A stretch of DNA of 36,154 bases from a virus (taxonomy: Duplodnaviria > Heunggongvirae > Uroviricota > Caudoviricetes): the IMG/VR virus record IMGVR_UViG_2778261278_000009; one strand, written 5' to 3'. Shown here piece by piece: positions 6,001-9,000 of this stretch (position 1 is the first letter of the stretch; each line of letters starts with the position of its first letter). A program made the position numbers.

Positions 6001-9000
6001 ATCCGGCATGTACAGGATTCATTGTCCTGCTCAAAGTCCATGCCATCAAACTGCTGGTTTTCATTGATGATGCGGGACCAGCCATCAACGCCCACCACCG
6101 GAACAATGCCGTTCTGCTTATCAGGGAAGGCGTAAATTTCTTTCGTCCACGGATTAAGGCCGTACTGGTTGGCGACGATCAGCAATGCGATGAACTGCGC
6201 ATCGCTGGCATCACCTTTAAATGCCGTCTGGCGAAGAGTGGTGATCAGTTCCTGTGGGTCGACAGAATCCATGCCGACACGTTCAGCCAGCTTCCCTGCC
6301 AGCGTTGCGAGTGCTGTACTCATCCGTTTTATACCTCTGAATCAATATCAACCTGGTGGTGAGCAATGGTTTCAACCATGTACCGGATGTGTTCTGCCAT
6401 GCGCTCCTGAAACTCAACATCGTCATCAAACGCACGGGTAATGGCTTTTTTGCTGGCCCCGTGGCGTTGCAAATGATCGATGCATAGCGATTCAAACAGG
6501 TGCTGGGGCAGGCCTTTTTCCATGTCGTCTGCCAGTTCTGCCTCTTTCTCTTCACGGGCGATCTGCTGGTAGTGACGCGCCCAGCTCTGAGCCTCAAGAC
6601 GATCCTGAATGTAATAAGCGTTCATGGCTGACCTCCTGAAAATGGCTGTGAAAATATCGCCCGCGAAATGCCAGGCTGATTAGGAAAACAGGAAAGGGGA
6701 TTAGTGATTCAGGCCGTTACCGCGTCCGTCGAGAAAAACTTCCACGAGCAAATCACGGGTATAAGTGCGCTCGATGCCGCGATGCAGATAAAGCCGTCCG
6801 CGTAAATTAGCTGATGCAGTCCAGGTACCATCTTTGTGTTTGACCAGCATTCCTGGCATGACCGCACCTCGATTAACGGTCTGCGTTCCATAATGTTGAT
6901 GAACCATAAAAACTCCTGCCCGTAAGCTGGGCTGCTGAACATATAGAGACTTCTGCGCGTATTCAGGCGGTGGATGGCCGCCGGTTGTCATAACTAAGCC
7001 GCCTCGTTGAAGCGACTAAGGTATGAAATGTTGAGTTAATTTCAGCTGGTCACACCGACGTTCACGCGTCCGTTTCACCCCTCGCACTCCCCGAAGCCTG
7101 CTGAAATTCAAACTGCGGATCTAAGCGGTCATCGCAACGGTGAATCAGGTAGTTGCCGTATCGTTGTGTTGTTGCGATGAACTTATTTAAAACTATAGTT
7201 GTTTTATTGGTTGTTTTAGATATAACTGGTTGTATTTAGGATGGATTTATTTTGTGACTTGAATCGCATAGCGATAACTGAAGCGAGGTTATGGTGGTTT
7301 TTTTAACGGTGTGTGATGAGGGGAGGGCAAAAGAAAACCCGGCACGGTGACCGGGATTCTTACGCCGTTAGGTAAAGATATTATTGCGGTGGCTTAATAT
7401 TACTACCTAGAGCAAAGATAGGAATTAGTTCTTTACTGAATGAGCACAATGCCCAGTTGATAATTTTTAATTGGTACTACCCATGCTTCCTATATGTCTG
7501 CGGCATGCTCCCAATAACCTTACCGAAGATGAACACCCGGTTCATCTCGTCTTTCTCGATCGGGTCCCACGGTGAGTAGCTTTTGTTATCAGAGATGACC
7601 AGCAGCTTATCCTTCATCATTTGCAGGCGCTTTACATGGGCTGTGTCGTCGTACAGAAACGCATAGATACCATCACCGTCGAAAGATTTAACTGTGATAT
7701 CAACGAACAGCAGATCACCTGGTTCGATCGTTCCTGACATGCTGTCACCACGCACGTTAATGATGCGGATATTTTCCGCCTTCCTACCATCGAACATGTG
7801 ACGAGCATCGTCAAACGAGTACTCAACCGAGCGTAGAACTTCTACAAACTCACGGTTGATGACTCCCGGCCCAGCACTGACTTCTATATCAAGAACGTCA
7901 ATCTTGAAGTATTTGGAATGGCTGACAGTTGATTGTATTGGTTGCACTGTACTGTCTGACATATTTCCAACGCCAGAAGATAACCATTCTGCGCGCACAC
8001 CCAAAGCGTTCGCGATCTCCACGATTTTAGTTGTTTGATTAGCTTTCCCTGTTTCGATTTTCTGAATAGCAGCCTGGCTAACCCCGACCAAATCCCCAAG
8101 CGCCTTTTGTGTAAGGCCTCGCGCTAATCTGGCTTCTTTAAGTCTTTCTGAGAGTGTTGTTTTCATATTCCAAATGTACAACCAAGGTTTTATTCCATCA
8201 AACGAAAATGGTTGTTGACTAAAAACAACCATAGTTTTAATCTTGATTCAAATTAACCACGGAGGTTGTTATGAACCCAGCTATCAAAACAGCGATCAAT
8301 ATCGTTGGTTCACAAAAGAAACTGGGCGCTGCTTGCGAAGTTTCACAGCAGGCCGTCTATAAGTGGCTTCACAACAAAGCAAAGGTATCCCCTGAACATG
8401 TCGGCAGCATTGTTACGGCTACTGGTGGAGTAGTGAAGGCATACCAGATTCGCCCGGATCTTCCGAAGTTGTTTCCACACACCGAAAAGAACGCAGCTTA
8501 AATTTCCATTTCACGCTCTTTAACAATAAGCAATCAACTTAACAGTCAATTCAAACTAAAGGAGTCAATTATGCAACCACTTACATACCAACAGACTAGC
8601 GGATTTAGCCCGACTGCGGTGATAAATCGTTCTCAAACAAAACAGGTGCCAGGCCACGAAAAAATCCGTGATGCCGTCCGCGCCTGGTCGGCTGTAGATA
8701 ATCAGGATGTCGTTGCCACACTCATTGTGAATGAGTATCGGGAGCAGGGCGGCGGCACCATCGATTTCCCTGATGATGTCAGCCGTGCACGCCAGAAGCT
8801 GTTCCGCTTCCTCGATAACAAATTCGATTCTGAAAAATACCGAAATAACGTGCGTGAACTGACCCCGGCAATTCTGGCGGTACTACCGCTGGAATATCGC
8901 GGTTACCTGGTTGAGCAGGATAGCTTCATGGCTAGGTTGGCTGAAATGGAAAAGGAACTCAGTGAGGCAAAACAGGCTGTCATTCTCAACGCACCACGCC

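Follow-up and report, generated by a model that had tools for sequence, protein, structure and literature searches.

The KilR protein of the cryptic prophage Rac is an experimentally established inhibitor of FtsZ and is unrelated in sequence to the Kil protein of phage lambda (PMC12482147). A block of Z-ring formation with ensuing filamentation, relieved by extra FtsZ, has been established for Rac KilR only, and the two types of protein also differ in their dependence on ZipA, which is needed for the toxicity of lambda Kil but not for that of the KilR type (PMC12482147). KilR consists of a beta-rich core and a disordered C-terminal tail that is essential (PMC12482147).

We analysed a stretch of 36,154 nucleotides from a virus of the Caudoviricetes (IMG/VR record IMGVR_UViG_2778261278_000009), referred to here as the window. 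The gene directly upstream of gam in this window probably encodes a 68-residue cell-division inhibitor of the KilR family and is, with the same degree of confidence, the first gene of a lambdoid leftward early (PL) operon. Established directly in the analysis were homology, reading frame, conservation of the start codon, position of the junction with lambda-type DNA and prevalence. The 68 residues, called window Kil in the following, correspond to the C-terminal residues 29-96 of a 96-codon ORF (6701-6991, minus strand), whose presence, as originally predicted, is confirmed. Window Kil matches the profile phrog_294 ("Kil") with E-values of about 1e-38 and 1.3e-37, the latter over residues 1-68 (profile positions 13-80 of 83), and Rac KilR matches the same profile with E 7.5e-35 (positions 13-82). 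BLASTP aligns residues 1-59 of window Kil with residues 1-61 of Rac KilR, Met1 to Met1, at 36% identity (E 9e-13). The NCBIfam model NF008465 ("FtsZ inhibitor protein") is also matched over the full length (E 1.8e-17), with a score of 63.1 bits that lies below the curated cutoff of 92 bits; window Kil therefore represents a sister subfamily to the strict KilR subfamily covered by NF008465. Overall, the similarity to the KilR family (PHROG 294, Pfam PF27398, NCBIfam NF008465) extends over the full length of the protein, and where the beta-core aligns with KilR, its residues are conserved throughout the family. Membership of the window gene in this family of Rac-type prophage cell-division inhibitors is thus supported, the proposed function resting on the 36% identity to KilR.

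The gene is already known and not novel; RefSeq and several phage records list it by name. RefSeq entry WP_000233576.1 ("phage encoded cell division inhibitor protein") is 100% identical to the 68-aa protein of the window, and 149 database homologues are labelled "cell division inhibitor protein", "Prophage Kil protein" or similarly. All independent annotation sources use the division-inhibitor name, although names are no tests, and no experiment on the 68-aa Kil subfamily was found in the searchable literature. Database homologues of window Kil carry PF27398; our Pfam scan of the ORF used a copy of Pfam without this family and returned no match, including none to a CIII family, so that the family was placed via PHROGs and NCBIfam. 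The original prediction had described the ORF as unrelated to what it replaces and had guessed at a functional analogue, either a division inhibitor or an FtsH modulator. With regard to lambda Kil and CIII the ORF is indeed unrelated, but it is no orphan, as the KilR family and the RefSeq name make clear. The division-inhibitor option is supported by homology, whereas the CIII-like, FtsH-modulating option has no support, as no CIII family was matched. Conservation in related prophages, which had been proposed as a test, was observed for the core of the ORF.

Table 1. Positions of the features in and around the kil locus of the window
Feature	Position	Strand	Remarks
exo	4861-5541		Lambda-type Red module
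bet	5538-6323		Lambda-type Red module
gam, 98-aa form	6329-6625	-	Pfam Gam, E 3e-65; heads the lambda-type Red module
gam leader, lambda-type, with the gam ribosome-binding site	6626-6700	-	From the lambda alignment; conserved in all window-type loci
Mosaic crossover point, 7-nt TCACTAA (His-stop)	6701-6707	-	Common to lambda-type and KilR-type kil genes
kil gene proper	6701-6907	-	68 codons plus stop; probable KilR-family (Rac-type) cell-division inhibitor
Shine-Dalgarno AGGAG	6913-6917	-	5 nt upstream of ATG 6907; read from the sequence; in all window-type loci
In-frame 28-codon upstream extension	6908-6991	-	Most likely 5' leader, outside Kil
Conserved structured leader element	6966-7026	-	Covariation; ATG 6989-6991 and a GAG(G) motif lie within it in paired positions
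Hairpin A	6988-7026	-	Inner 9-bp stem 7009-7017/6997-7005
Hairpin B	6978-6982/6966-6970	-	
Operator-like 19-nt palindromic site (OL)	7187-7205		Inverted copy (OR) at 8222-8240; repeat 95% complementary
Intrinsic-terminator-like hairpin with T-run	7338-7355	-	3' of the repressor gene; counterpart of the lambda immunity transcript's end

The gene order in the window is cI-like repressor gene, operator, kil, gam, bet, exo, and kil thereby occupies the early-left position characteristic of the KilR family. The left-hand operator site marks the putative PL region, from which kil should be transcribed. Judged by consensus, the PL promoter hexamers are weak, and a PR-like promoter (TTGACT/TAATCT) flanks the right-hand operator copy. 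The analogues of cro and cII in the window belong to the YdaS and YdaT families, as in Rac, and an N gene is absent. We propose that in the lysogen kil would be kept silent by repressor bound to the operator, and that upon induction it would be transcribed together with gam, bet and exo. The small, all-beta Kil protein would then act on FtsZ and block formation of the Z-ring, as Rac KilR does, which would lead to transient filamentation during phage replication. The job of lambda Kil would accordingly be done by an unrelated protein.

In lambdoid phages, mosaic junctions at gene boundaries are the rule, and the junction at gam proposed in the original prediction is real. Identity to lambda (97.7% over positions 4801-6707 of the window, through exo, bet and gam) ends at 6707, two codons before the shared stop. 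That the ORF ends at the stop codon of lambda kil could likewise be verified: the heptamer TCACTAA is shared and is followed by the whole gam leader. KilR-type genes that do not adjoin gam also end in His-stop, and the microhomology is therefore native to both types of kil. Kil probably reached its slot by recombination at this heptamer, which would have brought an early-left and immunity segment of the Rac/phi80 type, with cro and cII of the YdaS/YdaT type and without N, next to a lambda-type Red module. The supposed replacement of kil and cIII holds insofar as both genes are gone, but it understates the loss, because all lambda genes between gam and cI are missing (kil, cIII, ea10, ral, sieB, N, rexAB). 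Between gam and the repressor gene the window holds only kil and approximately 470 nt without an ORF of at least 32 aa; no CIII-like gene was detected in this interval. In 2167 of 5426 complete E. coli genomes, kil and gam are joined in exactly this way, compared to 1390 with the lambda-type junction, and about 40% of the complete E. coli genomes carry the gene. All 80 IMG/VR loci retrieved encode the identical 68-aa protein. The junction is a very common mosaic boundary and the finding is an ordinary one, which as a discovery matters little. What it does illustrate is convergence, as two unrelated Kil proteins are found in exactly one slot, down to the shared His-stop codon.

The extent of the gene is annotated inconsistently. 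Public records give four extents or frames (68, 128 or 140 aa, or a wrong frame), to which the 96 aa of the original prediction add another; among these the evidence favours 68 aa. The start of kil is most likely Met29 of the 96-codon ORF, i.e. the ATG at 6907, as judged from the following comparisons. Homologues typically comprise 67-68 aa, most often 68, and start at the equivalent of Met29, with which Met1 of KilR also aligns; the RefSeq extent of the identical gene is 207 nt. It is improbable, in our view, that the full 96-aa protein from ATG 6991, a Kil with a lineage-specific N-terminal extension (MTTGGHPPPEYAQK...), is the real product, even though none of the 78 window-type loci examined interrupts the ORF or shifts its frame, the protein database contains predicted 96-aa and 95-aa forms (one cluster has 472 members) and longer forms of 128 and 140 aa are annotated in some phage records. 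Changes at the N-terminus of KilR are, moreover, tolerated (PMC12482147). However, the extension is conserved only within one closely related lineage, only residues 29-96 being conserved beyond it, and the N-terminal extensions of homologues in other lineages are unrelated to one another in sequence. In HK225, phi80 and KO-TP1 this ATG is the start of a mini-ORF of its own, which comprises 16-28 codons and ends before the next gene, and variants differ in the frame in which the homologous leader nucleotides are read. The ribosome-binding site that had been rated as good for the 96-aa form is a GAGG 10 nt upstream of ATG 6991, and both are paired in a conserved, covarying hairpin, whereas the strong AGGAG serves the internal ATG at 6907. 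By our own estimate, a stop-free stretch of 28 codons arises by chance in about one of four cases. We therefore prefer the 68-aa form, with the 96-codon ORF representing kil plus 28 leader codons that would be in frame by chance, while the upstream ATG would belong to the leader RNA hairpin. The alternative frame 6709-6942 (77 aa), an open ORF in the window that is annotated in GenBank PV340559 (PhiR34_1), is almost certainly not the one expressed. This frame has no significant PHROGs match and a single sub-threshold Pfam match (PHD_P300, E 0.075, 13 bits with a cutoff of 27), and it contains 3-5 stop codons in ten diverged homologues. In the same ten homologues, substitutions are distributed over the codon positions of the Kil frame in a ratio of approximately 9/7/38. 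The third-position excess and the stops rule this frame out; the original prediction had named its expression as a finding that would speak against the 96-aa ORF, and it is not the conserved frame.

The AlphaFold2 model of window Kil is all-beta with six strands and a mean pLDDT of 82 (about 72 over the last 8 residues) and thus agrees with the KilR-type architecture of about 67-73 aa, a beta-rich core and an unstructured C-terminal tail. A Foldseek search of the model against the PDB gave nothing at E <1 and only a vague resemblance to small beta-barrels, e.g. eIF5A. The C-terminal tail is 5 residues shorter than that of KilR and differs in sequence. Since the tail is essential in KilR and its effects depend on its length, the target range of window Kil, for instance an effect on MreB, may differ from that of KilR. 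This bears on the question whether the main role of this KilR homologue might be something other than inhibition of FtsZ, such as action on an MreB-like target, a stress arrest in lysogens to the benefit of the host, or a trigger or decoy in defence. KilR does possess a further activity linked to MreB, for which the length of the C-terminal tail matters, and it aids survival of oxidative stress (PMC12482147). Together with the deviating tail and an identity to KilR of only 36%, this gives such a role some plausibility. We nevertheless regard it as unlikely, as the core residues shared with KilR are conserved across the family, position and regulation fit an early gene of the lytic cycle and the annotation sources, for what names are worth, all point to division inhibition. 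FtsZ is accordingly the target that we would expect for window Kil.

Upstream of kil lies a structured element that covers the ATG at 6991. In an alignment of 41 distinct variants, 97.2% of the cells are paired, compared to 31-49% in slid controls, and seven pairs of the long hairpin show compensatory changes; covariation amounts to 0.353 versus 0.128 in shuffles (0/500). The element is present in at least 120 IMG/VR contigs and in many lambdoid phages, the loci having been collected by an exact-pattern search that introduces an ascertainment bias. The 30 nt after the hairpin show no variation among the loci examined, the majority of which had been collected by means of a pattern taken from this same stretch. 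Within the window the element occurs in a single copy. There was no credible Rfam match at gathering or permissive thresholds, and a covariance-model search of lambda, Rac, HK022 and loci from other genera for additional or divergent copies gave only a chance-level match in lambda (13.6 bits, E 0.54); a fuzzy pattern search likewise detected none. An alignment of the upstream region with the KilS sRNA of Rac revealed nothing convincing.

It is possible, and is offered here tentatively, that the first 26 nt of the 96-codon ORF are part of an undescribed cis-regulatory RNA, a leader element of about 60 nt. In many lambdoid phages of enterobacteria this element is located in the leftward early operon, where its neighbouring genes are diverse and an intrinsic terminator in most cases directly precedes it. 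Such an RNA might gate translation or Rho-dependent polarity, e.g. via a polyproline mini-ORF (MTTGGHPPP...), and might thereby control how much is made of toxic early products such as Kil; a deletion would have fused the mini-ORF in frame to kil in this lineage. Several other explanations of the element were rejected. The mini-ORF does not represent a conserved peptide or a CIII-like protein, as conservation of the peptide ends with Pro9, the frame differs among variants and the substitutions amount by eye to approximately 4 synonymous to 9 non-synonymous ones. A tie to one upstream gene, e.g. N, was dismissed in view of the diversity of the upstream genes. The put RNA of the HK022 type comprises about 70 nt with two stems; one copy follows closely on PL and a second, similar one lies behind PR. 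An antiterminator of this kind in place of the missing N was rejected as well, since there is no sequence similarity, no second copy and no inverted repeat that links the PL and PR leaders. The element is separated from the operator by at least about 150 nt, and its place in phi80 is after N and a terminator. The blastn matches included no HK022 record, and the HK022 sequences expected to contain putL and putR, beyond PL and PR respectively, bear no resemblance to the element by eye. As a candidate regulatory RNA, the leader hairpin may deserve experimental study.

Of the described systems, CIII of lambda, an FtsH inhibitor, is comparable only insofar as it is encoded in the segment that is replaced here: lambda CIII matches phrog_550 (1.4e-31), whereas the window ORF is significant on phrog_294 only. 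Lambda Kil (47 aa; PHROG 3924/2461), a ZipA-dependent inhibitor of FtsZ, is encoded in the same slot directly before gam, and the stop codon and gam leader are common to both loci; a division block during lytic growth is presumably shared with window Kil. The two proteins belong to different PHROG families and gave no BLASTP alignment at E-values up to 100. KilR of the E. coli K-12 prophage Rac (b1352, 73 aa) is of the same family and of similar size and aligns over its full length. It likewise has a predicted all-beta core, with a C-terminal end that is of lower confidence in window Kil (PMC12482147). Its gene has the same place in the leftward early operon, between the repressor gene and the recombination genes (racR ... 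kilR ... recE recT). However, kilR is followed by ydaE-racC-recET and window kil by gam-bet-exo of lambda, the 5' leader of Rac differs (no KilS likeness is evident and the leader model has no match there), and the tail of KilR, at 36% overall identity, is 5 residues longer and unrelated in sequence. The closest relatives of window Kil are the Kil proteins of HK225, Perceval ("phi80 Kil homolog"), PhiR47_2 and KO-TP1 together with WP_000233576.1, which are identical or near-identical to it and differ only in their annotated starts.

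The sequence is a lambdoid prophage in which a 96-aa ORF adjoins gam (see table). Comparison with phage lambda by BLASTN gave one single match (97.7% identity, window positions 4801-6707) and no lambda similarity to the right of 6707. In a three-way alignment, the heptamer TCACTAA (His-stop) and the entire gam leader are common to lambda and the window, and upstream of TCACTAA the two are unrelated. The mosaic boundary is therefore located at 6707/6708, and the original prediction of a junction at gam, with the ORF ending at the stop position of lambda kil, was correct. Since KilR-type genes without gam downstream also end in His-stop, the 7-nt microhomology is native to each of the two kil types and offers a plausible site for the crossover. 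The proposed replacement of kil and cIII is right insofar as both genes are absent, but the loss is far larger: the gam-cI interval of lambda contains kil, cIII, ea10, ral, orf28, sieB, N and rexAB, and the approximately 480 nt between the ORF and the repressor gene here hold no ORF of at least 32 aa. Between the integrase end and exo, two genes possibly encode accessory or DNA-modification functions.

Features of the prophage around the gam junction
Feature	Position	Strand	Remark
SAM-methyltransferase-domain protein	2851-3453	+	
PAPS-reductase-domain protein	3465-4709	-	414 aa
exo	4861-5541	-	
bet	5538-6323	-	
gam	6329-6625	-	
96-aa ORF	6701-6991	-	
Operator-like palindrome	7187-7205		19 nt; inverted copy at 8222-8240, beside PR-like promoter
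Terminator-like hairpin	7338-7355		3' of repressor gene
cI-like repressor gene	7477-8232	-	S24/HTH
cro-like gene ('cro' analogue)	8271-8501	+	YdaS family
'cII' analogue	8571-9110	+	YdaT family

A search of the ORF against a local copy of Pfam-A gave no match. In PHROGs, residues 20-96 match phrog_294 ('Kil protein for bacterial septation inhibition', E 1.2e-38), and in NCBIfam residues 29-96 match positions 1-70 of 73 of NF008465 ('FtsZ inhibitor protein', E 1.8e-17), with a score of 63 bits that lies below the curated cutoff of 92 bits. The KilR protein of the Rac prophage (sequence from MG1655) is 36% identical to the last 68 residues (E 9e-13, Met aligned to Met) and matches phrog_294 at the same profile positions, whereas lambda Kil falls in other PHROGs and gives no alignment whatsoever with the ORF. 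A large protein database search returned 149 homologues, every stronger match with Pfam PF27398, and the named ones are called 'cell division inhibitor protein', 'phage encoded cell division inhibitor' or 'Prophage Kil protein'. The suggested function as a division-inhibitor analogue is thus backed by homology to the KilR family. An AlphaFold2 model built from 28 homologues is all-beta (mean pLDDT 82, about 72 over the last 8 residues) and found no PDB fold at E < 1; the predicted fold, weaker at its C-terminal end, agrees with the published description of KilR.

It had been considered that the alternative frame 6709-6942 (-) might be the one expressed. In ten diverged homologues (Citrobacter, Kluyvera, Enterobacter, Silvania and Pseudocitrobacter loci, phages HK225 and KO-TP1), substitutions relative to the window number about 9/7/38 at codon positions 1/2/3 of the Kil frame, and 3-5 stop codons arise in 6709-6942. 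The stops and the third-position excess rule out the alternative frame as a conserved gene and leave the Kil frame as the conserved one. The extent of 96 aa was overstated. Homologues are most commonly 68 or 67 aa long, starting at the equivalent of Met29, and the N-terminal extensions of longer predictions (MTTGGHPPP..., MFRQPGDKGK..., MGFAVVNCRVK...) are unrelated across lineages. Moreover, AGGAG stands 5 nt upstream of Met29, and RefSeq gives 207 nt for the identical gene (WP_000233576.1, 100% identical). On these grounds, we place the gene at 6701-6907. In the PhiR34_1 record (PV340559), the frame 6709-6942 is annotated as a hypothetical protein (2910-3143) and kil is missed; other public records give kil 128 or 140 aa.

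Neither the gene nor the kil/gam junction is new, and both are very common. A 151-nt junction probe (6630-6780, at least 80% covered) matched 2167 of 5426 complete E. coli genomes, with the annotation 'phage encoded cell division inhibitor protein', and the equivalent probe for the lambda-type junction matched 1390. All 80 IMG/VR loci listed for the Kil family encode the identical 68-aa protein, the same gam leader follows in those window-type loci that were fetched, and the region is 92-98% identical in cultured phages (PhiR34_1, Turner, PhiR47_2, Perceval and others).

When the sequence upstream of Met29 served as blastn query, a short block at 6966-7028 turned out to be shared with phages whose DNA in this region is otherwise unrelated to the window, namely HK225 (95%), phi80 (85%) and Enterobacter and Klebsiella phages, in all of which it is unannotated. 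This conserved leader element (6966-7026, minus strand) usually lies just after an intrinsic terminator; in phi80, the N gene and such a terminator precede it. A scan of IMG/VR for an exact pattern recovered the element from at least 120 contigs. Its neighbours vary on both sides: the downstream gene is KilR-type in 109 loci and one of many others in about 90, and the upstream genes are likewise diverse. The window has one copy, lambda, Rac and HK022 have none, and Rfam has no matching family. A put-like RNA was rejected on the basis of blastn matches, an inverted-repeat search and comparison with HK022. In phi80 (X13065, 3137-3346) and many IMG/VR loci, the element is followed not by kil but by a gene for a 69-aa predicted membrane protein (MSDLELGLKIY...); because its ribosome-binding region in phi80 is that of HK225 kil, this suggests a further mosaic joint exactly at the start codon.

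In the element, a long hairpin precedes UUAUGACAACCGGCGGCCAUCCACCGCC, which can fold into a second hairpin of 5 bp and is invariant in the loci seen, partly because most loci were collected by an exact pattern taken from this 30-nt segment. The covariation of the long hairpin is unaffected by this ascertainment. Among 41 distinct variants, 97.2% of cells are paired, against 31-49% with partners slid, compensatory double changes occur at seven pairs, and the covariation score of 0.353 (0.128 in shuffles) was reached in none of 500 shuffles. Because G-U pairs are frequent, the structure is assigned to the leftward transcript. Base-paired within the hairpin are a conserved GAG(G) and the AUG at 6989-6991, which starts the 96-aa ORF. 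At this AUG, other phages start a mini-ORF of 16-28 codons (MTTGGHPPP...) that is not conserved past Pro9, the shared nucleotides downstream being in differing frames among the variants; in the window lineage it happens to continue in frame into kil. As a reasonable guess, the element may gate translation of the first gene after the terminator or control polarity there, and the leader hairpin is the only item here that might repay more work.

In the immunity region, the 5' end of the repressor ORF probably reaches too far. Matches to the family profiles start at residue 23, so that Met23 (MKTTLSERL..., position 8166) is the likely start, which would leave an operator region of about 100 nt before cro. 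Read in a lambda-like manner, PL would lie near 7180-7260 and, upon inactivation of the repressor, drive kil-gam-bet-exo leftward; Kil would then halt division through FtsZ, as KilR does. No N-like antiterminator gene exists between the operator/PL region and kil (6992-7476). A boxA-like CGCTCTTTAACA follows cro at 8514-8525 (+), with no obvious boxB hairpin nearby (8502-8570). The PL leader carries a 12-nt inverted repeat (7038-7049/7097-7108) and nothing resembling HK022 put.

As in the window, YdaS and YdaT proteins are found in the immunity region of Rac. The mosaic therefore has a Rac-like right-hand partner, without an N gene, and a Rac-like immunity region and kil are joined to a lambda-like Red module. 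KilR itself is an experimentally studied toxin that is unrelated to lambda Kil, blocks Z-rings independently of ZipA, is suppressed by extra FtsZ and at high dose also disturbs MreB (PMC12482147). KilR needs its disordered C-terminal tail, and the effect varies with tail length; removal of three tail residues abolishes cell rounding, the MreB effect, and leaves toxicity intact (PMC12482147). The tail of the window protein differs from that of KilR and is five residues shorter. On this basis, one could speculate that the window Kil may be a purer division inhibitor than KilR.
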